Assembly: GCA_949293555.1 (NCBI GenBank)
Contig: CASFDV010000001.1
Coordinates: 12,590-76,589, forward strand
DNA length: 64,000 bases
Direction of reading: 5' to 3'
Source: an uncultured Bacillota bacterium
GTDB taxonomy: Bacteria; Bacillota_I; Bacilli_A; RFN20; CAG-826
The notes beneath the pieces were generated by a model. The model was not told the DNA's origin and made no database searches. It worked only from the letters and a program-made list of their open reading frames with translations. Below, one piece after another: positions 7,015 to 31,511 of the stretch. Numbering within the stretch: position 1 is the stretch's first letter; every line of letters starts with the position of its first letter. Both the position numbers and the translations under genes were made by a program.

Positions 7015-8064
7015 TCAATCGTTGACCAGGGTGATGGTGGGCGACACCCCCGGGGTCTCGAGCAGGAGGAAACCGTCCAGGAGCTCGTTCCTCGCCCCTC
7101 CCACGTTCTGGCCGACCCAGTCGTTCACGTGGAGCCCGACCATCGTGGTCGCCCTGTCGGGATAGTAGGCGGCGCTCACGAGGTAGGTGTGTCCCACCGC
7201 ATAGTCGAAGGAGTAGGTCCCGTCCTGCAGCTCGTCGAGCCACACGGTGTGGATCTCCTTCGTGCTGGAGCCGTAGATGTAGTCCTGGTCGCTGATGTTC
7301 ACGAAGACGTCGGTGTCGTAGGAGGAGCGGTTCTCGAAGGTGACCTCGACCTCCATCGTCTCAATCTCGAGCTCCCCGTAGGGGACGACCTCGATCTTGC
7401 GGATGAGGGTCCCGAGGCTGCTGTTGTTGGGGTCGAGGTGCAAATAGACGAGGCACTCCCCTGCCTTCACCTGCTTGAGGTCGACCTCGAGGTAGCCGCC
7501 GACGATGGAGTTCCCCGTGGAAGCGGTCACCGGGACGAAGTCGATCGCGTCCAGGGGGATGACCTCGGGGTCGCTCACGTCGATGGTCGCCTCGACGGAA
7601 CTGACATAGGTCCCGGAGCTGATGTTATGGAAAGCAAGGGGGATGTCCGTGGCCACGTCCCAGCTCGCCCCCTTGTCCGCCTCGCTCGCCTCGGAGATCC
7701 TCCCGTCGAAGGAAGCGCCCCACGAGAGGTTGTCGTCGGGGTCGTCGTAGCTCTCGACGAGGCTCGTCTCCACGGTGATGAGGACGTCCTCGGAAGGCAT
7801 CGTGAAGCGGTAGCCAATCCCCGTGTCGAAGATCTCCTCCCCGTTCATGTAAACGGCGTCCACCGAATGGAAGACGCTGACGATGTCGAGGTCGAAGTAG
7901 ACGGGATCCCCCTCCATCGCGCTTTCGGGAAGGTTCGTGATGAGGTATCCCTCCCCCTCCTCCCAGTCGATGGCGTGGCGCGGGGCGCTGGAGATCTCCT
8001 CCCCGCCACAGGAAGCGAGGGCGAGGAGAGGGATGAGGCATGCTAGGACGGCGTTCTTGCGCAT
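7015..8064 (-). CDS. acidic lipoprotein of unknown function
   Basis: Signal peptide plus lipobox LALASCGG. Highly Asp/Glu-rich mature region. No recognisable catalytic motif. Confidence 0.55.
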   Translation of the reverse strand: MRKNAVLACLIPLLALASCGGEEISSAPRHAIDWEEGEGYLITNLPESAMEGDPVYFDLDIVSVFHSVDAVYMNGEEIFDTGIGYRFTMPSEDVLITVETSLVESYDDPDDNLSWGASFDGRISEASEADKGASWDVATDIPLAFHNISSGTYVSSVEATIDVSDPEVIPLDAIDFVPVTASTGNSIVGGYLEVDLKQVKAGECLVYLHLDPNNSSLGTLIRKIEVVPYGELEIETMEVEVTFENRSSYDTDVFVNISDQDYIYGSSTKEIHTVWLDELQDGTYSFDYAVGHTYLVSAAYYPDRATTMVGLHVNDWVGQNVGGARNELLDGFLLLETPGVSPTITLVND

Positions 8065-18829: not shown

Positions 18830-18906
18830 TGGTGGCTGAGGAGGGACTTGAACCCCCGACCTGTCGGGTATGAACCGATCGCTCTGACCAGCTGGGCTAC
18901 TCAGCC
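18830..18906 (-). tRNA. tRNA-Met (CAT), elongator type
   Basis: Reverse complement is GGCTGAGTAGCCCAGCTGGTCAGAGCGATCGGTTCATACCCGACAGGTCGGGGGTTCAAGTCCCTCCTCAGCCACCA. Resembles E. coli metT. G1:C72 is paired, so it is not an initiator. Confidence 0.75.
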
Positions 18907-18923
18907 ATCCGCGGGCATCTTCC

Positions 18924-18998
18924 TGGTGGAGCATAGGGGTCTCGAACCCCCGACCCCCTGCTTGCAAAGCAGGTGCTCTACCGCTGAGCTAATGCCCC
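18924..18998 (-). tRNA. tRNA-Ala (TGC)
   Basis: Reverse complement is GGGGCATTAGCTCAGCGGTAGAGCACCTGCTTTGCAAGCAGGGGGTCGGGGGTTCGAGACCCCTATGCTCCACCA. G3:U70 identity pair, TGC anticodon. Confidence 0.85.
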
Positions 18999-19020
18999 GT
19001 GCCGCCTTGCGGCATCGCGG

Positions 19021-19049
19021 AATATAGCACTTACCCATAGGGGCATCAA
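19021..19049 (-). promoter_or_regulatory. candidate sigma70-type promoter for the tRNA Ala-Met-Ile cluster
   Basis: On the minus strand: TTGATG, 17 nt, TATATT, ending about 20 nt upstream of the tRNA-Ala 5' end. Confidence 0.3.
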
Positions 19050-19364
19050 GGGGAAAGGAAGGTATATGTAGTTATGAGCTGACTTGTTTCCAAGCAACCA
19101 TGACGTGATTTGTTTCTAGCCAAATCCCCCGGTAGAAGAACATTCCCCAGGGTGTCGGGGACATGAAGTGACCAGAAGATGAATACGACGCCTCGGCCAC
19201 CGGGAAAGCCCTGCGGAGAAGATTGCGACGGGGCAGACCGCGTGACGCTTTAAATGTCATGGCAGCACGCGAGCCGTCTGAAGGATGCCTGGCAGCAAGG
19301 GAGGGCTCCCCATCGCACCAAGGCGCGAAGAAATCCGCAATAACGGCAGTGGCAAGAGGCATGG

Positions 19365-19390
19365 AAAAAGGGGTCGCCGCAGCGACCCCT
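19365..19390 (-). terminator. intrinsic terminator after lipoprotein gene 19419..20309
   Basis: Minus-strand RNA forms a GGGGUCGCUGCGGCGACCCC hairpin followed by UUUUUCC. Confidence 0.4.
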
Positions 19391-19418
19391 CCCCTGTTGT
19401 CTCTCGCTTGCCTTCGGA

Positions 19419-20309
19419 CTAGCCGAGGGTGTAGAGGGCGGTGCACTTGAGCTGCACGGCGCCGTAGCCGAGGTTCTCAGGAACGGTCCCGGGAGTGACC
19501 TCGATGAGACCGGAGTAGTCGGCGTTCATGAAGGTGGACTTCTCCCAGTCGACCTCGAAGGTCACGCGGCAGCCGAAGTTACGGTTGCCGGCGCCGGTCT
19601 TGTCGTTGGAGGTCGGGTTGTACTCGTACATGATGATCATGCCCTTCCCGGTCTCGATGAGGTTGTGGAGCGTGGTCTTGTTGGTGATGGAGCCGGTGAA
19701 GTAGGCGGTGTCCCCTTCCATCTTGGCGCCCATGCCGTAGACGGCGGTGCTGATGACGCCCTCGGCATCGGTGGTGACGATGGTCTTGGTCGCGATGGCG
19801 TTGTTGTAGGAAGCGACATAGTAGCTCTCGCCATCGTTGGGGAAGACCTCGGTCATGTGCTCGGCGCCCTCGAGGGCGGCAGCGGCCTCAAGGGTCGCGG
19901 CGGAAGCGGGGGCCTCCTCGTTCGGATTGTACTGGCTGGGCTTCCAGTTCTCGATGTTCTCCCAGTAGTAGCCGTAGTACTTGGTGTTTGCGCGCTCGAC
20001 CATGTACTCGAAGGTGTAGTAGGAGCCGGTCCCCGCGGGGTAGTAGTCGGTCCCGGTGCCGGAAGCGCCGGCGATGCAGTCGATGTCCTCGTCGGCGGGC
20101 TTGGTCTCGGCCTCGTAGATGGCGGCGTTCGGGTCCTCGTAGGTGAAGTCGATCCCGGCGGCCTTGAGCTGCTCAGCGAAAGTGGTCGGCTGGGCGGTGG
20201 CGGTGCCCTCGCTCCCGGCGGGGCAGGAGCTGCAGGTGGATCCGTCGCCGCAGGAGGCGAGGAGGGTGGCGGCCGCGATCGCGGCGGTCAGGAGAATGGG
20301 TTTCTTCAT
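19419..20309 (-). CDS. lipoprotein of unknown function
   Basis: Start at ATG 20309: MKKPILLTAAIAAATLLASCG lipobox. No recognisable domain. Confidence 0.55.
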   Translation of the reverse strand: MKKPILLTAAIAAATLLASCGDGSTCSSCPAGSEGTATAQPTTFAEQLKAAGIDFTYEDPNAAIYEAETKPADEDIDCIAGASGTGTDYYPAGTGSYYTFEYMVERANTKYYGYYWENIENWKPSQYNPNEEAPASAATLEAAAALEGAEHMTEVFPNDGESYYVASYNNAIATKTIVTTDAEGVISTAVYGMGAKMEGDTAYFTGSITNKTTLHNLIETGKGMIIMYEYNPTSNDKTGAGNRNFGCRVTFEVDWEKSTFMNADYSGLIEVTPGTVPENLGYGAVQLKCTALYTLG

Positions 20310-20380
20310 TGTTTTTCTATCCCTTCTTTCGGGCACGTATTATTGAGATAAGTCAACCGAAATCAAGTGTCGGCAGGGGG

Positions 20381-20400: not shown

Positions 20401-21255
20401 CTAGTCGAGGAAGCGGAAGGCGAAGCCGATGACGTCGGGCCCTCCGTGGCAGGCGTCCGTCGCGTTCGTGGGGACGGCGAGGACTTCCTGGAAGCCCCGG
20501 GACTTCAGGTGGTTCACCGCCTCCTCCACCCCGTCCCTCGTGGCGCTCGTGTAGCCGAGGGCGGCGAGGCTAAAGTCAATCTTCCCTTCGTGGAGGCGGA
20601 GCCTTGAGTCGATGTACTTCCGGACGGCCTTCCCCATGTTCCCGAGGAGGAGGGTGGGGGCGAGGGAGAGCTTTCCTTCCTTCGTATAGACGCTGACCTT
20701 GAGGGGGAGGGGCGAGAGGAGCTTGGCGACGAGGGAGGGGCAACGCCCGCCCTTGGCCATGAACTTGAGGTCGCTGATCATGAGGGAGACGTCCTCCTTG
20801 TCCTTCACGGGGAGGGAGAGGCGCTTCAGCTCATGGATGTCGTCCTGCCCTTCCTTGAGGAGGCGCTCCGCCTCGAAGGCGAGCATCGCGATCCCGAGGG
20901 AGAACTGGCCGGAGTCGACGATCTCGATGGAGTCGTCCTCCCCCTTCGCCGCGAGGGCGTTCCGATAGCCCCCGGAAAGAAGGCTCGAGATCGAGAAGTG
21001 GACGATCCCCTCGTAGCCTTGCTCCTTGATCCTCTGGAAGTGGGATTGGTACTCGCTCACGTTCGGAGCGCTCGTCCTGGCAAGGTCGGGATGGGTGTTT
21101 CCGTACTCGAAGATGTCCTCGTTCGTCTTCTCTCCGTCAAGATACGTCTCCTCCCCCATCGTGAGATGGAAGGGAATGGAGAAGAAGCCGTGCTCGGAAA
21201 GGACTTCCTTGGGTAGGTCGGCGGTGCTTTCCACCGAAATAGCGATTTTCTTCAT
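20401..21255 (-). CDS. DegV family fatty-acid-binding protein
   Basis: MKKIAISVESTADLPKE..., EDD/DegV fold, typical ~280 aa length. Confidence 0.85.
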   Translation of the reverse strand: MKKIAISVESTADLPKEVLSEHGFFSIPFHLTMGEETYLDGEKTNEDIFEYGNTHPDLARTSAPNVSEYQSHFQRIKEQGYEGIVHFSISSLLSGGYRNALAAKGEDDSIEIVDSGQFSLGIAMLAFEAERLLKEGQDDIHELKRLSLPVKDKEDVSLMISDLKFMAKGGRCPSLVAKLLSPLPLKVSVYTKEGKLSLAPTLLLGNMGKAVRKYIDSRLRLHEGKIDFSLAALGYTSATRDGVEEAVNHLKSRGFQEVLAVPTNATDACHGGPDVIGFAFRFLD

Positions 21256-21346: not shown

Positions 21347-21915
21347 TCAGAAACGATGGGGAAGCAGGCCCGAGGGCTTCCTCTCTTCCGGATAAAGGAG
21401 CAGGAGGGGCAGGGAAAGGAGCGCCGCAAGAGGCGTCCAAAGAAGCTCCCAGGAGAGGATCCCTAGGTCCTTCGACGATTCGAGGACCCAGGAATCTGCG
21501 TAGAGGGAGAAGGGGACGCCCTCCGTGCCGACGTAGCGATACCACTCCCCCTGAAGGGATCCGAAGCCATGGAGGAGAAAAAGGGCGTCCTGGGAAGAGG
21601 GGACGGAGGACCCCTGCCTCATATGTTCCTCGAGGAAGGCGAGGGCAAGGGCGAGGGCGATGAGGGAAGGCGCCGCCTGTCCCCTCCAAAGGGCAAGGAA
21701 GGAGAGGAGGCCCTCCTCCAACCCCCGCCCCTCAGGGAGAGCCAGGCAAGGAACAGGGAAAGGAGAGAAGCGAGCCCAAGCGAAAGCAGGGAAACCCTCG
21801 CGTCATAGGAAGTCCCTCCCGCCAGGAGCTCCATGCCCCAGAGAAGGAGGACGGCGAAAGGGGAGGCAAGAAGGAAGGGGGCGCTCTTCGTCCTCTCTCC
21901 GGCCATGGGGATCAC
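21347..21915 (-). pseudogene. possible frameshifted membrane-protein gene (two overlapping frames, 21619..21915 and 21347..21721)
   Basis: The upstream frame encodes two hydrophobic helices, then degenerates into Pro/Ser/Arg junk. The overlapping downstream frame continues as a plausible multi-TM protein (LIALALALAFLEEHMRQG...FLLHGFG...). A C-homopolymer region lies at about 21720-21750. The frameshift could be genuine or an assembly error. Confidence 0.25.
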
Positions 21916-21954: not shown

Positions 21955-22479
21955 CTACCTCTTGGTGATCCGGAGGAACTCGAACACCCTCGTCTTGATG
22001 ATCCTGTCCGCGAGGAAGCCCGTCGCGAGGCCGGTGAGAAGGCTCGTGAGCCCCATCAGGGGGAAGTACCAGAGGACCGCGGAGGTCCCAAGGAGCGGGA
22101 TCGCGACGAGGATCTGCCCGAGCGAATGGAAGAAGGCGCCGAGGAGGGAGGCCCCGTAGATGGTGAACACCTTGGAGAAGGCCCCCTTCACGAGAAGCAT
22201 CGCCAGGTAGGAAAGGACCCCTCCGGCAAGGGACATGTAGAAGGGGAAGCTCAGGATCCGGCCCGTCATGAGGGAGGCGAGGAAGATCCTCCCGAGGTCG
22301 ACGATGAGCGCCTCCTTCCACGAGAACTGGTATATGAGGAGGAGGATCACGATGTTCGCGAGCCCCGGCTTGAAGCCCGGGACCGCGGATATGGGGATGA
22401 AGCTCTCGGCGATCGAAAGGGCGAGGGCGAGGGCGAGCATCGCCGCGTCGGCCGCCATCCTCCTTACGCTCCCCTTCAT
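21955..22479 (-). CDS. Gx transporter family protein (PF07456; historically annotated 'heptaprenyl diphosphate synthase component I')
   Basis: Small polytopic membrane protein (about 5 TM helices; ...PGFKPGLANIVILLLIY...). Start overlaps the upstream gene's stop. Conserved neighbour of ApbE/NusG_II in Bacillota. Confidence 0.6.
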   Translation of the reverse strand: MKGSVRRMAADAAMLALALALSIAESFIPISAVPGFKPGLANIVILLLIYQFSWKEALIVDLGRIFLASLMTGRILSFPFYMSLAGGVLSYLAMLLVKGAFSKVFTIYGASLLGAFFHSLGQILVAIPLLGTSAVLWYFPLMGLTSLLTGLATGFLADRIIKTRVFEFLRITKR

Positions 22480-22949
22480 ATGATGATGTCAGGGCCGCTT
22501 TGGGAACCGAGGGCCCCATCCTCCTTGGCGAACTCCACGCGGACGTGGTTATAGGCGCAGACGATCGGACGCCTCACGTCCATCGTGTAGCCGAGGCCGA
22601 CGCAGTACTGGGAAGGGCATCCCGACTCGAGGACGGCGACCCCTTCCGCAGAAAGGGCGAGGGTCATCGGGGTCATCGCCCCCTGGATGCGGTACGCCTT
22701 AAGGGCCTCTTCCCCATAAGGGGACGGATCCACTTCTTGCACGTCTTTCGAAAGGACTTTGGATAAAGAAGGCTCCTCCAGATTCAAGGAAAGAAGCCTC
22801 TCTTCGTCCCGATAGACGATGGCTTCTTCGAAATCGCCCTCAGGAGCGAGGATCGCACCGATCGTTCCTCCGAGGAGGGCGAGGAAGAGCGCTAGGAAAA
22901 GGACGATGTCCCCTAGATGCTTCCTGAGGCCCTCCTTGAGGGCCATCAC
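22476..22949 (-). CDS. NusG domain II-containing protein (DUF1312-like), membrane-anchored
   Basis: N-terminal TM helix then a small beta domain with CPSQYCV...RPIVCAYNHVRVEF, matching the NusG_II family usually found between apbE and the Gx transporter. Confidence 0.5.
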   Translation of the reverse strand: MMALKEGLRKHLGDIVLFLALFLALLGGTIGAILAPEGDFEEAIVYRDEERLLSLNLEEPSLSKVLSKDVQEVDPSPYGEEALKAYRIQGAMTPMTLALSAEGVAVLESGCPSQYCVGLGYTMDVRRPIVCAYNHVRVEFAKEDGALGSQSGPDIII

Positions 22950-24034
22950 TTCACCTCTTCAAGAGGGAAGCCTTCGCTTTGATAGACGAAGGGATCCTCC
23001 CTTCTCTCGTCATAGAGGAACATTTCGTATCCCATCCCTTCGATTTCCGCAATCTTGGCCTCCTCCCCCCTCATGAGAAGGTAGGTGCTGAGGACATCGC
23101 ACCAGCCGGCATCATCCCCGATCACAACCGCGGTGGTCAAAGCGGGGACGGCGCTCCCGTCCATGGGATCGACGACATGGGAATACAAGGTCCCGGTCGT
23201 CTCGTCGACCTTGTGCTGGAGGGTGGTCGCGCTCGTCCCGACGGAACGGTCTCGGACCCGGAAGCCGTACCCTTCCACGTCGGCGAGTCCGATCAGGAAA
23301 GTCCCGTCCTCGGCAAGGGGGTTCGTCCCGAAAGAGAGGGAACTCCCGCCTGCGTTGAGGAGGAAGTAGCGGTTTCCTTCTTCAAGAAGACGTTCCCGCA
23401 CTCTCGCGAGAGCGTACCCCTTCCCCATCGCTCCGAAGTCAAGAAGGGCGTCCCCTGCCTTCGTCACATATGCGGCCCCCTCACCTACGGAAAGGGCAAG
23501 GCTGCTTCCGTGGATTCTGTCGACTTCCGCGGATATCTCTTCCTTCGTCGGAAGCCGGGCGTCCTCCCCCTCGTTATTTACCCAGAGGTCCTTCCAAAGG
23601 TTCGCGAGCCCCCCGGAAAGGATGTCGATCGCGCCCTCGGTGAAGTCCTTGGCCTCTTCGGCGAATTCCAGAAGGCCTTGGAAGAAGCCATCGAGAGGAA
23701 ACGTTCCTTCTTCCTCGCTCAAGAGGAGCGCGGTCGTCTTCCCCTGCATGTCGCCCCAGCGAAGGTCTGTCTCCATGTAATGCGACATGTGCGCGAAAGA
23801 ATCGGAAATTTCCTCGTAAAGGCCATCTTCCGCCTTTCCTTTCTCATGGAAGAAGCGGAATTCTGAGAAGGCGCCGAAGGAAAGGTAATCGAAGACAGAC
23901 GAAGCGGTCCACTCCTTCCCGACCCAGTCGTTCCCGCTGCCCGTGGACTGTTGGGAGGTGGAGGAAGAGCTGCCTCCCGGAATCTCGCAAGCGAGGAGAA
24001 GCGGCACGAAAAGAAGGGCAAGGGACTTTTTCAT
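22946..24034 (-). CDS. apbE: FAD:protein FMN transferase (flavin transferase ApbE), lipoprotein
   Basis: Start at internal ATG 24034: MKKSLALLFVPLLLAC lipobox. ApbE fold motifs (...GAMGKGYALARV..., ...VIGDDAGWCDVLST...). Confidence 0.8.
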   Translation of the reverse strand: MKKSLALLFVPLLLACEIPGGSSSSTSQQSTGSGNDWVGKEWTASSVFDYLSFGAFSEFRFFHEKGKAEDGLYEEISDSFAHMSHYMETDLRWGDMQGKTTALLLSEEEGTFPLDGFFQGLLEFAEEAKDFTEGAIDILSGGLANLWKDLWVNNEGEDARLPTKEEISAEVDRIHGSSLALSVGEGAAYVTKAGDALLDFGAMGKGYALARVRERLLEEGNRYFLLNAGGSSLSFGTNPLAEDGTFLIGLADVEGYGFRVRDRSVGTSATTLQHKVDETTGTLYSHVVDPMDGSAVPALTTAVVIGDDAGWCDVLSTYLLMRGEEAKIAEIEGMGYEMFLYDERREDPFVYQSEGFPLEEVK

Positions 24035-24094
24035 ACGGCGGATTCTAGATTGTCCTGGCTTGTTTCTCAACGGAGGGCGGGAATGGGGAGGAAA

Positions 24095-24130
24095 AGGCAA
24101 AGAAAAAGGCCTCCCTTCCGGAAGGCCTCC
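24095..24130 (-). terminator. intrinsic terminator between rnfB and apbE
   Basis: Minus-strand RNA forms a GGAGGCCUUCCGGAAGGGAGGCC hairpin followed by UUUUUCUUUGCCUUUU. Confidence 0.45.
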
Positions 24131-24133
24131 TGC

Positions 24134-24481
24134 TCATTCCTCTTCCTCGTAGACGGGCTCGGGATGCTCTTTGAGGTAGAGGAGGATGGGGTCGAAGTTC
24201 TTCTCCTTCTTCCCCGGGCGGCAGAGGGCGGGGTCCTTGACCTCGCCGGAGACGAGCTTTTCCGCCATCTCCTGGCAGCCGGCGTTCCCGCAGGCGCCGC
24301 AGTCGATCCCGGGGAGGAGCTTCTTCACCTCCCCCACCCTCTTGTCCTCCTTCACCTTGAAGACGACGCTGAAGAGGCAGAGGAGGAAGGCGAAGATCGC
24401 CCCGAGGGCGAGAAGCACCAGGAAGCTATAGAGGATCGCCATCCCGTTGTCGAAGGCCATGTCCAGCAGGCTCATGTCCAT
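24134..24481 (-). CDS. rnfB: RnfB-like subunit reduced to the N-terminal membrane-anchored Fe-S domain (no ferredoxin domains)
   Basis: TM helix, then LPGIDCGACGNAGCQEMAEK...ALCRPG. Compare E. coli RsxB [20 protein letters not shown]...CAPGG. The protein ends at 115 aa with no CxxCxxCxxxCP ferredoxin motifs. Confidence 0.6.
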   Translation of the reverse strand: MDMSLLDMAFDNGMAILYSFLVLLALGAIFAFLLCLFSVVFKVKEDKRVGEVKKLLPGIDCGACGNAGCQEMAEKLVSGEVKDPALCRPGKKEKNFDPILLYLKEHPEPVYEEEE

Positions 24482-24484
24482 TTC

Positions 24485-24706
24485 TCACTCCTTCTTCCCT
24501 TCTTCAGGGGGATTCTCATTTTCCTTTGGCCGGTAGAGCCGGCAGCCGGCGTTCTTGCAGCCGATGCAGTCCGTCTCGTCCTTCCGCACCCTCTCGCATC
24601 CCTTGGGAGGCTTCGTCCTCATGTACCAGACGAAGCTTCCGAGGAAGAGGAGGGCGAGGAGGACGACGATGGCGATCGCCAGGCCCCTGGCCGTGGCCTC
24701 GTCCAT
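24485..24706 (-). CDS. small membrane-anchored Cys-rich protein (second RnfB-N-domain-like mini-subunit)
   Basis: 73 aa. TM helix then CERVRKDETDCIGCKNAGCRLY (C-x8-C-x2-C-x4-C), resembling the CGACGNAGC cluster motif of the adjacent rnfB. Translationally coupled: TAG-ATG after rnfA, 3-nt gap before rnfB. Confidence 0.45.
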   Translation of the reverse strand: MDEATARGLAIAIVVLLALLFLGSFVWYMRTKPPKGCERVRKDETDCIGCKNAGCRLYRPKENENPPEEGKKE

Positions 24707-25291
24707 CTAGGCGATGCCCTGGAGCCCCATGAAGGCGAGCGCCATGAGGGCGGCGGTCACCATCGCGATGGGGATGCCCTTGAGGGCGCGGGGGGTCTCG
24801 GCGCTCTCCAGCCTCTCGCGGATGAGGGCGAAGAGGACGATCACGAGGAGGTAGCCGAGCGAAGTCCCGATCGCGTTCCCCATCGAGCTCAGGAAGTCGA
24901 GCCCCTGGTCGGTGTTCCCCTGGGCGACCCCGAGGACCGCGCAGTTGGTGGTGATGAGGGGGAGGTAGATCCCCAGTCCCTTGTAGAGCGCGGGCGAGGT
25001 CTTCTTGACGAAGATCCCCACGAGCTGCACGAGGGAGGCAATGACGAGGATGTAGACGATGGTGTCGAGGAACTCCATCTTCGCCGGGACGAGGACGTAG
25101 TTATATAGAGGCCAGCAGACGAGGCTCGCCAGCACGATGACGAAGGTCACCGCGAGGCCCATCGAGAAGGCCGGCTTGACCTTGCTCCCGGTCCCGAGGA
25201 AGCTGCAGATCCCGTAGAAACGGGCGAGGACGACGTTGTCGATGAGAGAGCTCGTCAGTACGGCGAGGAGGAAGGCGACGATGTATTCCAT
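24707..25291 (-). CDS. rnfA: Rnf electron transport complex subunit A
   Basis: ...KTSPALYKGLGIYLPLITTNCAVLGVAQ...LIRERL...AFMGLQG, canonical RnfA/NqrE. Confidence 0.85.
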   Translation of the reverse strand: MEYIVAFLLAVLTSSLIDNVVLARFYGICSFLGTGSKVKPAFSMGLAVTFVIVLASLVCWPLYNYVLVPAKMEFLDTIVYILVIASLVQLVGIFVKKTSPALYKGLGIYLPLITTNCAVLGVAQGNTDQGLDFLSSMGNAIGTSLGYLLVIVLFALIRERLESAETPRALKGIPIAMVTAALMALAFMGLQGIA

Positions 25292-25294
25292 GGG

Positions 25295-26020
25295 CTAGTT
25301 CGCTCCTTCCTGGGCCGCGGCCCTCTTCTTGGCGAGGAGGGCGTCCACCCTCGCCTTGTCCCTCTTATGGATGTCGATCGCGGCGATGATAGCAAGGGCG
25401 ATCCCCAGCACGAGGAAGCCCCCGATCGAACGCTGGAAGAACTCGATCGAGAGGTCGTAGACCCCGTCGACCTTCAGGAGCGGGAGCGAGTACTCCGGGA
25501 TGAAGGTGAACACCTTCCCGAAGGTGAGCTGCCCCGTCCCGAGGATCTCCCTCACCAGGGCGATGAGGCAGATGGCCCAGCCGAAGCCGATGCCGTTCCC
25601 GAGGGCGTCGAGGGCGCTGTTGAGCACCGTGTTCTTCGAGGCGTAGGCCTCGCTCCTCCCCAGCACGATGCAGTTCACGACGAGGAGGGAGAGGAAGACG
25701 CCGAGCGAGGTGTATAGCTCCGGGAGGAAGGCCTCGCAGAGCATCTTCACCACCGTGACGAAGGTGGCGATGATGACGATGTAGCAGGGCGTCGTGATCT
25801 CTTCCGGGATGAGCTTCCGGAGGAGCGAGACGCAGACGTTCGACCCCAGGAGCACCAGGGTGAAGAGTATCGCCATCCCGAAGGCGCTCTCGAAGGAGGT
25901 CGTGACGGCGAGGGCCGGGCAGAAGCCCAGGAGGGAGACGAAGAGGGGGTTGGCCTTCCAGATTCCGGAGACGAAGGCCTCCTTCCTCTCTCCCCGCATG
26001 TCGATAGCCTTGTCCGCCAT
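25295..26020 (-). CDS. rnfE: Rnf electron transport complex subunit E
   Basis: ...ANPLFVSLLGFCPALAVTTS...LLVVNCIVLGRSEAYA..., canonical RnfE/NqrD. Confidence 0.85.
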   Translation of the reverse strand: MADKAIDMRGERKEAFVSGIWKANPLFVSLLGFCPALAVTTSFESAFGMAILFTLVLLGSNVCVSLLRKLIPEEITTPCYIVIIATFVTVVKMLCEAFLPELYTSLGVFLSLLVVNCIVLGRSEAYASKNTVLNSALDALGNGIGFGWAICLIALVREILGTGQLTFGKVFTFIPEYSLPLLKVDGVYDLSIEFFQRSIGGFLVLGIALAIIAAIDIHKRDKARVDALLAKKRAAAQEGAN

Positions 26021-26023
26021 ATC

Positions 26024-29000
26024 CTAGAGCGCGAGGAGCGCCTCCACCTCGGCGGGGACGTCGCCAAGGTAGTCGGCCTGGGCGTCCTCGATCCCGGACT
26101 CGATCCATCCGAGCTCGGAGGCGATGGGGCTCTCCGAAGGAATCTCCGGGATGGCCTTGCTGGAGTTCAGTTGCTCCACCCATGTGGTGAGGGCAGTCAG
26201 GTTCTCGCCCTCGAGCGTCGTGTTCACGACCTCGAGCCCGATGATCTCGGCGTCCTCGCCGAGGGCGACGTAATAGAGGTTGTCATCGCCCGTGCTCCCG
26301 GCCTTGAACTCGTAGACGCGGCCGATCTCGGCCTCGCTTTCGTCAAGGGCGCTCCAGTAGCCGGTCGCCTGCCAGACGGCGGAAAGCTCGACGAAGGCGT
26401 TCCAGGAGTGGGCCTCGGGGATGAGCGCCTTGACGCTCTCGGGGATGTTCGTCGGAACGACGGGTTCCGAAGGATCGACGACCTGGTCGGGATTCGCCTC
26501 GTAGTGGGCCAATGCCTCGGCGATCGCGTCATGCGCGATCACGATGCCGACGGTCCCGCTCGAGGGCTCGTAGCCATCGGTGTCCTCGTAGGAGCCGCCT
26601 CCGTTCACCGACTCGATGTATCCGTCCGTCCCGTCCGGACGGCTCTGCTCGTTGACGAGGGCGACGACCTTGCCGATGGTGCCGTCGGCGTTCACGCCGA
26701 TGAGGAGCTGGAGGTCGCCCCACTTTCCGCCGACGTTCGTCGTGTTCGTGAGGTAGCCCCTTCCGAGCACCTCGCCGGACTCGTTCTTCACCTCGCGGTA
26801 GGAGTGGAGGTAGGTCCCGCCTTCGACTTTCTGGGAGGAGCTGACGGAATAGGAGCCATCCCAGAGGGCGAGGTAGGGAGACTCGACGGTCTCCTTCTCA
26901 TAGGCGAGGGCCGCGTCGATGTCCGCGGCGATCTGATAGGCGGCTTGCTCGACGCCGGAAGTGGCGATGTCCTCGCGGTAGTCGGCGGTCCCGTCGTTGA
27001 TCTTGGCGATCCAGCTCTCGACGCCCGCAAGATAGGCGCTGTCCCAGTCCCCGCTCACGAGGCTGAGGGCGAAGCTCCCGTCCTGCTCCACGAGGATGAC
27101 GAGATCGTAGTCCCCGTCGCTCGCGGCGCCCGAGAGATAGTAGGAGGCGCCCTCTTCGACGCCATCCGCGTCGAGGACGCCCATGCGGGCGATGATGTTC
27201 CCTTCGTTGATGATCGCGGGCTCGCCCCAGCCTTCGGCCTCGGGGAGAGCGTCCGCCATGGCCTTCGTGATCTCGGCGGGGAGGTTCGCGACGCCGGTGT
27301 AGTCCCCGATGGCCTCGGCGATCGCGTCATGGGCGATCTCGATGCCGACGGTCCCGCTCGAGGACTCGTAGCCGAAGATGTCCTCGTAGGAGCCGCCGCC
27401 GTTGACGGACTCGATGTAGCTGTTGGTCCCGTCCGGGCGGCTCTGCTCGTTGACGAGCGCGACGATCGAGGAAATCTCGCCGTCCGGCTCGATGCCGATG
27501 AGGAGCTGGAGGTCGCCCCAGCGGCCTCCGACGTTCGTGGTGTTCGTGAGGTAGCCCCTTCCGAGCACCTCGCCGGACTCGTTCTTCACCTCGCGGTAGG
27601 AGACGATGTACTCATAATCGCCGCTGAGGGCGACTTCCTCGCCGACCGTAGCGGCGTTCCGGAATAGGCTCAGGTATTTCTCAGTCAGGTCGACGACCGT
27701 GCCGGTCGCGTAGCCCTTGGCCTCGGAGACGATGTTCCGGATGAGGGTCGCGGAGACGGTCGCCCCGGTGGTCGTGCCGCCGTCGATCGTCGCGCTCCCG
27801 CCGTTGATGGAGTCGATCCAGGCGGAGATGACCTCCTCGGTCCCGATGGGGTTCCCGCCGGAGTAGTCCTCGAGCGAGAGCCCCGTCACCTCGCCCTCGG
27901 GAGTGAGCCCGACGAGGATCGCCACATGGACGCCGTGCTGGTTCGTGCCCTCGCCGTAGTAGGCGGTCCCGAGGAGGGCGCCCCCGGCGTCCTTCACCTC
28001 GCGGGAGGCCTTGACGTACTCGCCCTCCAGGGCGGCCTCGGCACCGACCGAGGAGGCCCCCTCGAAGAGGGACTTCGCCTCGTCCTCGCCGATGACGGAC
28101 TCGACCGGGGCGGGGCCGGTGTAGTCGGCGACGGCCTCGTCGATGATGGCCTTCATGGTGATGTAGGAGGCCGTGGCGGTCGGGCCGGACTCGATGGAGC
28201 CGGTGCCGTCGTTGACGGAGTCGATCCAGGCCTGGACCCCCGTGAGGGTGCCGCCGGGGCCCATCGCGTCGCCGCTCGTCGCGGAGTAGTCCTCGAGGAA
28301 GAGCCCGGATACTTCCCCGTCGGTAGTGACGCCGACGAGGAGGGCGATGTTGACCTCGAAGGTGTTGTGGCCGGATCCGCGATAGGCGCGGCCGAGCACG
28401 TTCCCGGAGGCGTCCTTCACCTCTCGGTAGGAGCTCAGGTAGGTCTTGCCTTCGAGCGCGACCTCCTCCCCGACGGAGGAGGCGCCTTCAAAGAGGTCGA
28501 GGTACTTCTGGTCGGGGTCGACCGGCCCGGGCGGGACGTCCCCGTTCTCGTAGAGGTCGAGCGCCTCGGCGACCATCTCGCGGACGACGGAGGCGGTGTT
28601 GGTGGCGCCGGTGGTGGTGCCGCCGTCGATCGTCGCGGAGCCGTCGTTGATGGACTCGATCCACGCCTCGACGGTCGCGTTGTTGCCTCCGGTGTTGTCC
28701 GGCCCGTAGGCGACGATCTCGATGTGGGCGAGGCCGTCCGCGTCGACGCCGATGAGGAGGTCGACGGTCGCGCCGAACCCCGTGGCTCCCACCGCGTGGT
28801 ACACCTTGCCGATCTCGTTCCCGGAGCCGTCGAGGGCGCTCTTGTACGTCTCGATGTAAGTGCCGCTGGAGACCTCGGTCTCATCGCCGAAGGAGGCGGC
28901 GTCGGGGAAGCAGGCGTAATAGGCCTCGTTCTCCTTCCGATCGTTGTTCTCTCCGATGATGTCCGCGGTGAAGTAGTTCACCGTCCCGATGAGGGCGCCC

Positions 29001-29071
29001 GCCCCGCCGCCGATGAGGGCAAGGACGGCGACGACCGAGAGAACGTGCTTTGCGTCGAGCTTGATCTTCAT
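26024..29071 (-). CDS. rnfG: Rnf subunit G expanded to ~1015 aa with multiple tandem FMN-binding domains
   Basis: N-terminal signal-anchor TM plus a canonical RnfG/NqrC FMN_bind domain (..DGGTTTGATNTASVV..). Then at least five further FMN_bind-like repeats, each with a flavinylation-type [ST]G[AV][TS] motif (SGPTATAS, GGTTTGATVSAT, SSSGTVGIEIAHDAI, IATSGVEQAAY, PSSGTVGIVIAHDAI). Sits between rnfD and rnfE with ATGA start/stop overlaps. Confidence 0.8.
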   Translation of the reverse strand: MKIKLDAKHVLSVVAVLALIGGGAGALIGTVNYFTADIIGENNDRKENEAYYACFPDAASFGDETEVSSGTYIETYKSALDGSGNEIGKVYHAVGATGFGATVDLLIGVDADGLAHIEIVAYGPDNTGGNNATVEAWIESINDGSATIDGGTTTGATNTASVVREMVAEALDLYENGDVPPGPVDPDQKYLDLFEGASSVGEEVALEGKTYLSSYREVKDASGNVLGRAYRGSGHNTFEVNIALLVGVTTDGEVSGLFLEDYSATSGDAMGPGGTLTGVQAWIDSVNDGTGSIESGPTATASYITMKAIIDEAVADYTGPAPVESVIGEDEAKSLFEGASSVGAEAALEGEYVKASREVKDAGGALLGTAYYGEGTNQHGVHVAILVGLTPEGEVTGLSLEDYSGGNPIGTEEVISAWIDSINGGSATIDGGTTTGATVSATLIRNIVSEAKGYATGTVVDLTEKYLSLFRNAATVGEEVALSGDYEYIVSYREVKNESGEVLGRGYLTNTTNVGGRWGDLQLLIGIEPDGEISSIVALVNEQSRPDGTNSYIESVNGGGSYEDIFGYESSSGTVGIEIAHDAIAEAIGDYTGVANLPAEITKAMADALPEAEGWGEPAIINEGNIIARMGVLDADGVEEGASYYLSGAASDGDYDLVILVEQDGSFALSLVSGDWDSAYLAGVESWIAKINDGTADYREDIATSGVEQAAYQIAADIDAALAYEKETVESPYLALWDGSYSVSSSQKVEGGTYLHSYREVKNESGEVLGRGYLTNTTNVGGKWGDLQLLIGVNADGTIGKVVALVNEQSRPDGTDGYIESVNGGGSYEDTDGYEPSSGTVGIVIAHDAIAEALAHYEANPDQVVDPSEPVVPTNIPESVKALIPEAHSWNAFVELSAVWQATGYWSALDESEAEIGRVYEFKAGSTGDDNLYYVALGEDAEIIGLEVVNTTLEGENLTALTTWVEQLNSSKAIPEIPSESPIASELGWIESGIEDAQADYLGDVPAEVEALLAL
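26514..27602. repeat. intragenic tandem duplication in rnfG: 291-nt segments 26514..26804 and 27312..27602 (period 798 nt, roughly 85-90% identical)
   Basis: Nearly identical runs, e.g. GAGGTAGCCCCTTCCGAGCACCTCGCCGGACTCGTTCTTCACCTCGCGGTAGGAG in both copies. Corresponds to repeated protein blocks YREVKNESGEVLGRGYLTNTTNVGG[RK]WGDLQLLIG...SSGTVGI.IAHDAIAEA. Confidence 0.6.
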
Positions 29072-30210
29072 TTGACTTTACCTCCGAAGATGATTCCGAT
29101 GACGATGAAGAGGATGTCGGCGAGGAGGATGAGGCCGATGGTCAGCCACTTCTTCCACGTCCACCGGGACGAGGCCACCTTGTGGTGGTCGAGGACCGGG
29201 GTGATGAGGTTGGCGAGGAGGATCGAGTAGCCGACCCCCTCGGGCGCCGAGGCGAAGAGACGGATGAGGACGGTGAGGGAGGCGGCGGAGAGGGCGTAGA
29301 TGTAGCGCCCCGGCTTCGTCGCCGGCATCGTGACCGGGTCGGTCAGCATGAAGGTCGCCCCGAAGAGCATGCCTCCCGCGAGGAACTCGACCCCGATGAA
29401 GTGCCAGATGTCGAAGTCCTTGACGATGCCGCCCCCGGCGATCGCGATCCCCGCGATGGCGATGAGGGCGGTGAAGGCGCCGACGTAGGTGAAGGTCACG
29501 CGCCAGTCGATGGCCTGGCGGAGCAGGAGGTAGAGGAGGCCGACGAGGATGAGCACCTTGCACACCTCGCCCATCGCCCCCTGGGTCCTGCCGAGGAAGA
29601 GGTCGAGGAGGGAGACGTCCATGAGGGAGGAGTAGCCGCCCTGGATCGTGCCGGAGAGGACAGTGCCCCCGGTGACGACGTCGACCATCGTCCCCTCGCC
29701 CCAGGGGATGGCGGGGTAGCTCATCGTGTTCGAGAAGCTGAGGCGCGTGAGGATCATGCCCACGGCGGCGGGGTTGAAGATGTTCTGCCCGAGGCCCCCG
29801 AAGAGGAGCTTGCCGAAGATGATGCCGGCGAGCGCCCCGACGAGGACGCCCCACCAGCTCGTGGTGGGCGGGAGGCACATCCCGAAGATGAGGGCGGAGA
29901 CGGCGGGCGCCACGGCGTTCACCGGGCGGTACAGCTTCAGCGCGTGGAGGAACTTCTCCTTGAAGGGATGCTTCTCCCCGTCGTAGGGCATCCGCCCCTT
30001 GATCATGACGAAGACCCATTCGGCGATCATCATCGCCGGGACCGCGATCCCGAACACCTTGAGGGCGTCGAGGCGATAGACGATGAAGGAGAAGATGAGG
30101 AGGGGCAGGAGGGCGAGGAGGACGTCGAGCATCATCCTCGTGGCGCTGTCCTTCCTCCGGACGTGCGGGCTTGGCTCCTGGAGGAGCCGCATGGTGTTCT
30201 CTTCGCTCAT
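29068..30210 (-). CDS. rnfD: Rnf electron transport complex subunit D
   Basis: ...GGLGQNIFNPAAVGMI...FMLTDPVTMPAT... (NqrB/RnfD family with the conserved TDP flavinylation region). Confidence 0.85.
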   Translation of the reverse strand: MSEENTMRLLQEPSPHVRRKDSATRMMLDVLLALLPLLIFSFIVYRLDALKVFGIAVPAMMIAEWVFVMIKGRMPYDGEKHPFKEKFLHALKLYRPVNAVAPAVSALIFGMCLPPTTSWWGVLVGALAGIIFGKLLFGGLGQNIFNPAAVGMILTRLSFSNTMSYPAIPWGEGTMVDVVTGGTVLSGTIQGGYSSLMDVSLLDLFLGRTQGAMGEVCKVLILVGLLYLLLRQAIDWRVTFTYVGAFTALIAIAGIAIAGGGIVKDFDIWHFIGVEFLAGGMLFGATFMLTDPVTMPATKPGRYIYALSAASLTVLIRLFASAPEGVGYSILLANLITPVLDHHKVASSRWTWKKWLTIGLILLADILFIVIGIIFGGKVK

Positions 30211-31511
30211 GAAAGACGCGCGATGCGCTTTGCCCTCCTTACGTACTCGGTGACGTTGATGCGGCTCGTGCAGCTATAGGCGCAGAGCCCGCATTCGACG
30301 CAGCGCTCGGGGTGGAGCGCCTTGACCCTCTCCTTGTCCCCGCTCTTCACCGCCTGGGCGATGAGGACGGGCATGAGGTGGGTCGGGCAGCTGTAGACGC
30401 AGGAGCCGCAGCGGACGCAGCTATCGGCGGTCCACACCTCCTCGTCCATCACGAGGATGGAGGTGACGGTGGGGGTGAGGATGATGTCGTCATCTGCCAC
30501 GGTGTTCCCCATCATGGGGCCGCCCATGATGAGGCGCTTCTTCTTCCCGGAATCGGTATACCCCCCGGCAAGCGGGAGAAGGTCCCGGAGGGGGGTCCCG
30601 ATCCGCGCCTTGAGGAACTTCTGCTCGTTCACCCCGTCCCCGTGGATCTGCACGTAGCGCGAGAGGAGGGGCATCCTCTTCTTCGCGGCGAGATAAAGGG
30701 AGTAGATGGTGGCGACGTTGTACTCGAGGATCCCGAACTCCGCGGGGAGATGGCCGCTCGGGATGTCGACGCCCGTTGCGGTCTTGATGCAGGCGACCTC
30801 CCATCCCTGGGGATAGAAGTTCCAGACCGGGGCGAAGGAGATGCCGGAGCCCTCCTCGCCGGCGAGGGCGCTCGACCAGCATTCCGCGAGGTCCTTGTAG
30901 ATCCACTTCGCGCAGATCTTCCCTTCCTTGGCGCCGGTGGCCCTCATGAGGAGGCGGAGCCCCTCGATGATCTCGCGGGGGTGCTCCAGCATGAGGCGGT
31001 GGTCGCTTGCCAGCGAGGGCTCGCACTCGACCCCGTTGATGACGATGGTGTGGATCTGATGGTCCCCCTGGAGCTTCACGTAGCTCGGGAAGGAAGAGCC
31101 GCCGAGGCCGACGAGGGCCATGTCCCGCATGATGGCGAGGACATCCTCCTTCGTCAGGGCCTTGAGCTCCTCCTCGCTCCTCTCCTTGAGGGAAGGATCC
31201 GGCTCGTCCTTGAAGTCGTTCTCGATCTTCAGGAACTCGCACTCCTTCCCCGTGTGGTGGAGGTGCTTCTCGATCCCGAGGTAGGTGCCGGAGCAGGTGG
31301 ATACGATCGGCTGCTCGAAGAAGGGTCCCTTCCGGAGGCCGAGGCGCTCCCCGACCCTCACATGGTCCCCCTCCTTCACGGAAAGCTCGTAGGAGGCGCA
31401 GCGGCCGTTCGTGCCTGCGACGTAGCAGTACTTGGGCAAAGGCGCCTCTTCCAGTTCCTGATGGGCGAGGAGGACGTTGGGCAGCTCGATGTGACGTGCT
31501 TTCGCAATCAT
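30207..31511 (-). CDS. rnfC: Rnf electron transport complex subunit C (NADH-binding, 2x[4Fe-4S])
   Basis: ...GLGGSSFPSYVKL... and CVRCGSCVYSCP / CVECGLCAYSC ferredoxin motifs. RBS AAGGAAACGGG. Confidence 0.85.
   Translation of the reverse strand: MIAKARHIELPNVLLAHQELEEAPLPKYCYVAGTNGRCASYELSVKEGDHVRVGERLGLRKGPFFEQPIVSTCSGTYLGIEKHLHHTGKECEFLKIENDFKDEPDPSLKERSEEELKALTKEDVLAIMRDMALVGLGGSSFPSYVKLQGDHQIHTIVINGVECEPSLASDHRLMLEHPREIIEGLRLLMRATGAKEGKICAKWIYKDLAECWSSALAGEEGSGISFAPVWNFYPQGWEVACIKTATGVDIPSGHLPAEFGILEYNVATIYSLYLAAKKRMPLLSRYVQIHGDGVNEQKFLKARIGTPLRDLLPLAGGYTDSGKKKRLIMGGPMMGNTVADDDIILTPTVTSILVMDEEVWTADSCVRCGSCVYSCPTHLMPVLIAQAVKSGDKERVKALHPERCVECGLCAYSCTSRINVTEYVRRAKRIARLS

Follow-up and report, generated by a model that had tools for sequence, protein, structure and literature searches.

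The 64,000-nucleotide (nt) stretch analyzed here, hereafter the window (uncultured Bacillota bacterium, contig CASFDV010000001.1, positions 12,590 to 76,589), carries an rnf operon in which rnfG, the gene for the flavin mononucleotide (FMN)-bearing G subunit of the Rnf complex, is expanded to 1015 codons. This gene lies on the minus strand (26024-29071) between rnfD and rnfE, as an intact open reading frame (ORF) with an ATG start and a GC content at third codon positions (GC3) of 0.93, matching the adjacent genes; a plus-strand frame over the same interval was discarded because it holds an internal stop. The gene order rnfC-D-G-E-A is the same in the related loci L001, L002 and L004-L007, and RnfC, RnfD, RnfE and RnfA are all present and intact in the window operon. 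A first-pass annotation made from the DNA letters had described here a gene for a protein of ~1015 amino acids (aa) with an N-terminal membrane anchor, which the ORF and a hydrophobic helix at the start of its product confirm, and ATGA overlaps on both sides, of which one stands: rnfG is joined to rnfD, upstream, by a 4-nt ATGA overlap, whereas the rnfG/rnfE junction reads TAG-gat-ATG and these two genes do not overlap.

Compared with itself as a whole, the RnfG protein returned the identity match only, and fragment-wise BLAST was needed to resolve its repeats, namely seven homologous modules of ~135-145 aa each after a 43-aa N-terminal hydrophobic helix. The repeats annotated at first pass are thus real, but their count was low: at least five modules had been expected beyond the canonical one, and there are six. 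The similarity between modules is far above chance (E-values down to 1e-46), with E-values of 3e-46 between modules 4 and 6 and 6e-26 between modules 2 and 3, while module 1 matches module 3 at 1.7e-22, module 2 at 7e-14, and the most divergent modules 5 and 7 at 2e-6 and 7e-6 to 2e-5, respectively. On the minus strand, the anchor helix (aa 1-43) occupies 28943..29071, aligns with the RnfG helix of 7zc6_G and 9eri_G, and is near-invariant across homologues. It is followed by module 1 (aa 44-182; 28526..28942), a bona fide RnfG FMN domain with a Pfam FMN_bind match at aa 98-172; the hypervariable modules 2 (aa 183-324; 28100..28525; delineated by self-BLAST) and 3 (aa 325-458; 27698..28099; containing DGGTTTGATVSAT); module 4 (aa 459-597; 27281..27697); module 5 (aa 598-727; 26891..27280), with a predicted RnfG fold; module 6 (aa 728-866; 26474..26890), whose core appears to have been converted from module 4 (see below); and module 7 (aa 867-1015; 26027..26473), a conserved terminal module found by self-BLAST and modelled with a predicted local distance difference test (pLDDT) score of 83-93. 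The length of the gene is best explained by repeated tandem copying of the entire RnfG ectodomain. This ectodomain is very acidic (isoelectric point (pI) 4.05, net charge about -123, one cysteine) and, by analogy with the RnfG of solved complexes and given the single N-terminal helix, is presumably extracytosolic.

Among PDB sequences, phmmer matched aa 15-134 to the RnfG of C. tetanomorphum (7zc6_G, E-value 1.4e-6), and the A. woodii subunit (9eri_G) was recovered with an E-value of 7e-3. The full-length AlphaFold2 (AF2) model (mean pLDDT 74.5, predicted template modelling score (pTM) 0.28) displays the same pattern in every module, two helices coming after four or five strands, with disorder only in short linkers and a few loops, and Foldseek placed the RnfG chains 7zc6_G, 9eri_G, 8rb8_G and 8ahx_G at the top for this model, all with a probability of 1.00. 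Since Pfam misses most of the modules, module 5 was also modelled alone, from an alignment of 25 modules (pLDDT 89.9, pTM 0.83), and its best PDB folds were 7zc6_G (0.99), CbFMN4-D1 (8p2b, 0.97) and NqrC (4xhf, 0.90), albeit with weak E-values (0.07-0.4). With RnfG, CbFMN4 and NqrC as the closest folds of module 5, the repeats appear to be FMN_bind-like, and we conclude that they are, as modelled, RnfG/NqrC-type FMN-binding-fold domains, with fold searches covering module 5 and the N-terminus together with module 1. The domain count by Pfam FMN_bind (PF04205) that had been suggested at first pass barely detects them: the whole protein scores 25.6 bits (cut-off 22), module 1 alone scores 18 bits, and there are partial matches in modules 4 and 6 and none in modules 3, 5 and 7, that is, at most one stretch by Pfam vs. 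seven by internal homology, AF2 models and the module 5 fold search. The sequence being this divergent, membership of the RnfG family rests on genomic context, PDB homology and fold. An identity as sCache_3_3 (PF17202) was rejected, as the match covers profile positions 62-101 of 107 only, module 2 alone reaches 18 bits (cut-off 28.8) and none of the stretches passes by itself; the whole-protein score of 32.8 bits is taken to be the sum of weak partial matches.

The acceptor states for covalent FMN were read after every module, from the window protein and from its relatives, had been aligned to the module hidden Markov model. Module 1 holds a canonical TGAT (T154-G-A-T157, in DGGTTTGATNTAS) with T157 as acceptor, in line with the one canonical RnfG domain of the first-pass annotation. 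In the alignment, T157 falls on the threonine of SGAT in CbFMN4-D1 (8p2b), a domain in which FMN is covalently bound on Thr67 in the crystal structure (PMC10339131), and all homologues retain T[TG]G[AG][TS] at this motif. Module 3 is likewise canonical (TGAT, acceptor T438), with the module 1 motif repeated exactly in the window protein and in P0001, P0002 and P0006, and its position is taken by a GPS-type module in L004, L005, P0003-5, P0007 and P0008. Module 2 bears a non-canonical SGPT-A-T with either T298 or T300 as acceptor, in an ambiguous register: under hmmalign the acceptor falls on a variable column (T/M/V/G/A/S), in an ungapped alignment on a conserved GP[ST], and GP[ST]A is conserved. 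Modules 4 and 6 share S-S-G-T, with candidate acceptors T574 and T840; this threonine is invariant in all modules of that type, and low-GC relatives (P0007/L006) have a canonical DVDTGAS at the module 4 position. Module 5 reads TSGVE, with Glu708 instead of an acceptor (E or N in homologues), and module 7 has an alanine in the acceptor column. The [ST]G[AV][TS] motif annotated in each module is therefore confined to modules 1 and 3, and the reading “SGTV” was one residue out of register.

The RnfD of the window offers a comparison for the S-S-G-T sites, as its own site, DVVTGGT, places TGGT over the TTAT of “DTVTTATPL” in A. woodii (9eri_D). Since the RnfD of this lineage has a glycine at -1, the resident ApbE flavin transferase presumably accepts glycine there; ApbE is reported to tolerate changes at -2 and -1 at ~50% yield, the aspartate being dispensable (review PMC12052999). 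The glycine at -1 in RnfD, the invariant threonine and the DVDTGAS of P0007/L006 make the SGT sites plausible. Judging from these motifs, modules 1 (T157) and 3 (T438) are near-certain flavinylation sites, modules 4 and 6 (T574, T840) are probably flavinylated, flavinylation of module 2 is doubtful, and that of modules 5 and 7 at the homologous site is predicted to be impossible. What stands of the first-pass annotation is thus a gene at the RnfG position expanded by presumably extracytosolic tandem FMN-binding-fold modules, with a co-encoded ApbE, rather than an unbroken chain of six or more flavins, given two canonical motifs and two modules without an acceptor.

Only eight relatives of this protein, 96% to 41% identical and all metagenomic, were found in a word-indexed search of 5.8 billion proteins, including P0001 (96% identical, full length, 14 member sequences) and P0002 (84% identical). 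A scan of GTDB species genomes for RnfD added four different metagenome-assembled genomes (MAGs) labelled “uncultured Bacilli/Firmicutes bacterium”, with RnfD identities to the window of 99% (L005), 95% (L004), 73% (L006) and 73% (L007), while L001 and L002 come from other samples. The operons of the related MAGs are the same, their RnfGs are 976-1118 aa long, and homologues range from five to seven modules. An extra ~110-aa C-terminal domain (…GGTPTYPG…), for which we found no Pfam match, is present in P0003, P0004, P0007, P0008 and the L005 RnfG, and lost in the window protein (at window 26024-26060), P0001 and P0002, where the last residues (…EALLAL) are kept. Base composition also varies across these loci, with a locus GC of 62-64% and an rnfG GC3 of 0.87-0.93 in the window, L004 and L005, and values of 38-40% and 0.28-0.30 in L006 and L007 despite the same operon and 73% RnfD identity.

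A gene this repetitive raises the suspicion that assembly fused or collapsed several rnfG paralogues into one 3-kb ORF, or else that the ORF is a decaying pseudogene, and the cores of modules 4 and 6 are indeed 86.6% identical over 299 nt, the longest internal similarity. The remaining module pairs, however, are far less similar (at most 70% nt identity, save for stretches of 42-76 nt at up to 83%), the gene was recovered at the same position in independent assemblies (P0001, P0002, L001, L002, L004-L007), its frame is uninterrupted with a GC3 of 0.93, and the ratio of non-synonymous to synonymous substitutions (dN/dS) is below 1 in every module. Independent recovery, intact frame and dN/dS together rule out a chimera or pseudogene for practical purposes, and we consider such an origin extremely improbable.

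Between the window and L005, nt identity (in 150-nt intervals) is 93-100% in rnfC, rnfD, rnfE and rnfA, whereas within rnfG it falls to 55-66% in modules 2-3 (55-63% in module 3) and 53-74% in module 6, module 2 is 52% identical at the amino-acid level, and a 321-nt indel lies at the 3′ end. The hypervariable hotspot corresponds to window 26474-28525 (minus strand) and to L005 11686-13740. Evolutionarily, dN/dS against L005 is 0.16, 0.69, 0.87, 0.37, 0.26, 0.52 and 0.21 for modules 1 to 7, respectively (ranges 0.16-0.20 for module 1 and 0.37-0.42 for module 4), which indicates purifying selection on modules 1, 5 and 7 (0.16-0.26) and on module 4 (0.37-0.42). Since dS is raised as well in the variable parts, these probably diverged through allele replacement, beyond point mutation alone. 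The core of module 6 in the window is nearer to module 4 of L005 (81%) than to module 6 of L005 (53-74%), which indicates intragenic gene conversion of module 4 into module 6, and P0006 is a mosaic allele that combines an L005-type module 2 with a window-type module 3. Variable distal modules on a conserved module 1 core are the pattern expected for an exposed, diversifying surface structure.

How far RnfG is expanded elsewhere was assessed by comparing RnfG lengths, as the first-pass annotation had proposed, and these range from one module to more than 700 aa. HMMER, run exhaustively over 1.84 billion cluster representatives, returned 221 matches, and among the best 150 of these 221, classed by length with the reservation that a multi-module query favors multi-module matches, 80 are 160-260 aa long (one module), 28 are 260-380 aa (two modules), 28 are 380-560 aa (three modules), five are 560-700 aa (four modules) and four exceed 700 aa, the other five (<160 aa) being probable fragments. 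P0028 (311 aa), P0014/P0024/P0030 (437-486 aa) and P0018 (625 aa) share the N-terminal anchor and tandem RnfG modules with the window protein, from which they differ in having two to four modules and an identity of about 25-33%. Three of the four modules of P0018 carry a canonical SGAT/TGAT, in an operon rnfC-D-G-E-A-(79 aa)-(103-aa iron-sulfur (FeS) RnfB), while P0016, an RnfG of ordinary size (176 aa), belongs to an operon of this type (L011), with the small ORF, a short RnfB and ApbE-NusG_II-Hpre_diP_synt_I. RnfG is thus expanded to varying degrees within one Rnf subtype, and the shorter multi-module RnfGs appear to come from other lineages, as judged by low identity and amino-acid composition only. 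Two of these loci differ in their surroundings: in L009 (11717-15484), an iron-siderophore-type transporter (FecCD/FecCD/ABC/Peripla_BP_2) directly follows the four-module RnfG operon, possibly by coincidence and possibly as a sign that iron is reduced or assimilated, and in L013 (7001-12549) the gene for a 486-aa RnfG with three modules precedes rnfE, rnfA, a 108-aa four-Cys protein and ApbE-NusG_II-Hpre_diP_synt_I, with rnfC, rnfD and a short rnfB not adjacent.

RNF clusters with multi-flavinylated RnfGs have been described by Méheust, Huang, Rivera-Lugo, Banfield & Light (2021, eLife 10:e66878; PMC8238504), who defined RNF clusters by the KEGG K03616 RnfB, proposed a second electron path to extracytosolic acceptors for these RnfGs, and noted a Christensenellales subset fused to a multihaem domain. 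The arrangement, which the first-pass annotation had not recognized for the G subunit of Rnf, is therefore already published as a bioinformatic class, although no member has been characterized. The window protein resembles this class in its RnfG position within an rnf cluster, its several FMN-type domains of presumed extracytosolic location, its association with ApbE and its more than one predicted ApbE site (two TGAT, two SGT and one doubtful, T298/T300). It differs in that each module is a whole ~140-aa RnfG ectodomain, that its modules pass Pfam FMN_bind at most once, so that a Pfam count would probably not flag the protein, that two of the seven modules have canonical motifs and two of the seven have no acceptor, that strain-level mosaicism is not described there, and that its cluster has a 115-aa RnfB under the TIGR01944 cut-off. 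What sets the window case apart is the set of modules nearly invisible to Pfam, the mixed acceptor states, the strain mosaicism and the minimal-RnfB subtype.

Canonical RnfG (7zc6_G of C. tetanomorphum, 9eri_G of A. woodii, 8ahx_G of A. vinelandii) and NqrC consist of a transmembrane helix and one Thr-linked FMN domain, to which aa 1-182 of the window protein align, and with a canonical RnfG length of 187-207 aa the window protein adds about 830 aa, or six modules. SaFMN3/CbFMN4 and Listeria PplA (secreted or lipoprotein) also have tandem ApbE-target domains and flexible beads-on-a-string models (PMC11334425), with covalent FMN shown by mass spectrometry for SaFMN3 (PMC10339131), but they are not Rnf subunits, and their ~85-aa domains are >80% mutually identical and all DxxxGAT. 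MmcA of the Methanosarcina Rnf is a functional analogue, as a multi-cofactor extracytosolic partner forming an outward branch (cited in PMC8238504), although it is archaeal, binds multiple haems rather than flavin and is a separate polypeptide.

On balance, we lean slightly toward a redox role for the distal modules, as a partly flavinylated, electron-carrying appendage of RnfG. Module 1 would do the usual RnfG task, relaying electrons between the RnfA/E centre and RnfD at the outward-facing side of the membrane, and the co-encoded lipoprotein ApbE would flavinylate module 3 (T438) and probably modules 4 and 6 (T574, T840), the product being a very acidic beads-on-a-string appendage bearing 2-5 covalent FMNs. 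This appendage would draw electrons off the RnfG flavin toward extracytosolic acceptors or soluble flavins, being neither rigid nor fully populated as a flavin wire, and its distal modules would be evolutionarily plastic (5-7 copies, sites gained and lost, modules 2, 3 and 6 mosaic). Several observations weigh against such a role. The flavin occupancy of every module is a prediction from sequence motifs, every single module is under the Pfam FMN_bind cut-off, and the protein scores 22.4 bits for TIGR01947 (RnfG) against a cut-off of 102. AF2 leaves the inter-module geometry undefined (pTM 0.28), so that flavin-flavin distances are not estimable; the canonical site of module 3 is missing in close relatives, e.g., L005 with its 99% identical RnfD; neither module 5, flanked by modules 4 and 6, nor module 7, at the end of the chain, has an acceptor, an awkward layout for a wire; and no terminal reductase or acceptor gene was found among the neighbouring genes scanned.

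The same features could also reflect a protein in which only module 1 is redox-active, modules 2-7 forming a variable surface stalk, shield, adhesin or ligand-binding array varied by phage or host pressure. The loss of the acceptor in modules 5 and 7 and the non-canonical module 2 fit this explanation, as do the absence of the canonical module 3 site in L004 and L005 despite 95-99% RnfD identity, the nt identity of 53-66% and dN/dS of 0.5-0.9 of modules 2, 3 and 6 in an operon otherwise 93-100% identical, the variation from five to seven modules with the C-terminal domain present or absent, and the ectodomain pI of 4.05. It accords poorly with the invariant threonine of the module 4/6 type and the perfect DVDTGAS of low-GC relatives, with the perfect module 3 motif in the window protein, P0001, P0002 and P0006, and with the canonical SGAT/TGAT in three of the four modules of P0018, and we thus regard a purely non-redox array as unlikely, if a serious candidate. 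At the other extreme, the first-pass annotation had envisaged six or more covalent flavins in a chain with every site occupied, conducting electrons outward over tens of angstroms from an Rnf that is otherwise canonical, a reading for which the tandem RnfG-type modules with short linkers, the ApbE within the operon and the general proposal in PMC8238504 could be invoked. Yet only two motifs are canonical, two modules have no acceptor, the sites vary between strains, and the operon is non-canonical with a truncated RnfB; since the acceptor is missing from module 5, which modules 4 and 6 flank, the gene does not encode a continuous series of covalent flavins, and we consider this version very improbable.

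Extending the partly flavinylated appendage to the whole complex, it is possible, though here we are distinctly more tentative, that its strain-variable form makes the Rnf of this uncultured Bacilli lineage an outward (or inward) electron conduit, in an undescribed subtype with a one-cluster RnfB and a ~75-aa four-Cys subunit, in which acceptor-less modules would act as spacers or bind non-covalent flavins or other ligands, and the exposed part would owe its diversity to gene conversion and the swapping of modules. If the distal modules do bear flavin, cytoplasmic NADH/ferredoxin pools would be tied directly to outside redox chemistry, without quinones or cytochromes, which is of relevance to electron disposal by fermentative gut and rumen Bacilli. 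Beyond this locus, the case shows that counts of multi-flavinylated proteins made with Pfam probably overlook highly divergent ones, and RnfGs with 1, 2, 3, 4 and 5-7 modules, with and without acceptors, represent a natural series for testing flavin-chain conduction.

The remainder of the operon departs from the “otherwise canonical rnfCDGEAB” annotated at first pass, in that RnfB (24134..24481, minus strand) has 115 aa with a single PF04060 FeS cluster (E-value 1.9e-10), and a 73-aa ORF (24485..24706, minus strand) is inserted between rnfA and rnfB. This RnfB consists of a transmembrane helix and one C-x2-C-x4-C-x17-C cluster, aligns to residues 4-70 only of 7zc6_B and 9eri_B (274- and 333-aa RnfBs), is without any of the ferredoxin-type domains of solved RnfBs, and scores 48.5 bits for TIGR01944 (cut-off 68.7). 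The 73-aa protein, a candidate extra subunit for which we found no Pfam or NCBIfam family match, has a transmembrane helix and four cysteines (…KGC-x10-C-x2-C-x4-C), all kept in L001, L005-7, L009, L011 and L013, and its stretch D-C-x2-C-x-N-A-G-C resembles the RnfB cluster motif. Within the subtype, RnfB measures 103-121 aa and the preceding transmembrane protein 71-79 aa (KGC-x8-10-C-x2-C-x3-GC), the pair lying at 13946-14538 in L001, 10951-11494 in L009 and 8890-9431 in L011. The RnfB truncation might hint at a redirection of this Rnf from ferredoxin:NAD+ coupling, against which stands the same truncated RnfB beside a normal 176-aa RnfG (L011). Indeed, the short RnfB and four-Cys protein occur with one-module and multi-module RnfG alike, and their presence beside the RnfG of P0016 makes them a property of the subtype rather than a correlate of RnfG expansion. 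A literature search for “short RnfB” or Rnf in Mollicutes-like Bacilli found nothing specific, and PMC13134045 was set aside, as it concerns NosR and not RnfG. The minimal RnfB and four-Cys protein raise the question of the cytoplasmic electron partner of this Rnf subtype.

The other operon genes, all on the minus strand, include rnfC (30207..31511; Complex1_51K, RnfC_N and Fer4; TIGR01945 309 bits, above cut-off), rnfD (29068..30210; PF03116, 179 bits for TIGR01946, just under its cut-off of 207, with end-to-end alignment to 7zc6_D), rnfE (25295..26020; PF02508; NF009070 228 bits) and rnfA (24707..25291; PF02508; TIGR01943 234 bits). Four genes downstream of rnfG, the ApbE flavin transferase (22946..24100; PF02424, E-value 3.6e-30) is a lipoprotein (MKKSLALLFVPLLLAC), with an internal methionine as its likely true start. 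It is followed by a NusG_II-domain membrane protein (22476..22949; PF07009), whose position is kept in L001, L011 and L013, and by a membrane protein of the Hpre_diP_synt_I / Gx-transporter type (21955..22479; PF07456, E-value 4e-37). Next to these, window 21347-21915 (minus strand) holds what is left of a membrane protein of 334 aa that L005 encodes in full (18595-19599); residues 1-70 and 212-334 are retained in different frames, pointing to an internal deletion and a frameshift.

The neighbouring genes scanned comprise a LacI regulator, an MFS-like protein, an ABC ATPase, a Na+/H+ exchanger, DegV (20401-21255, minus strand; named from homologous loci) and unannotated lipoproteins, none of them informative. 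Predicted lipoproteins (signal end …LASC/…SSC) without a Pfam family lie at window 7015-8064, 14744-16999, 19419-20336 and 60605-61453, two of them being large acidic ORFs near the rnf operon. Finally, ARAGORN predicted a tRNA-Ile with anticodon UAU at window 18659-18734 (minus strand), beside tRNA-Met(CAU) and tRNA-Ala(UGC); a UAU anticodon is uncommon for decoding isoleucine in bacteria.

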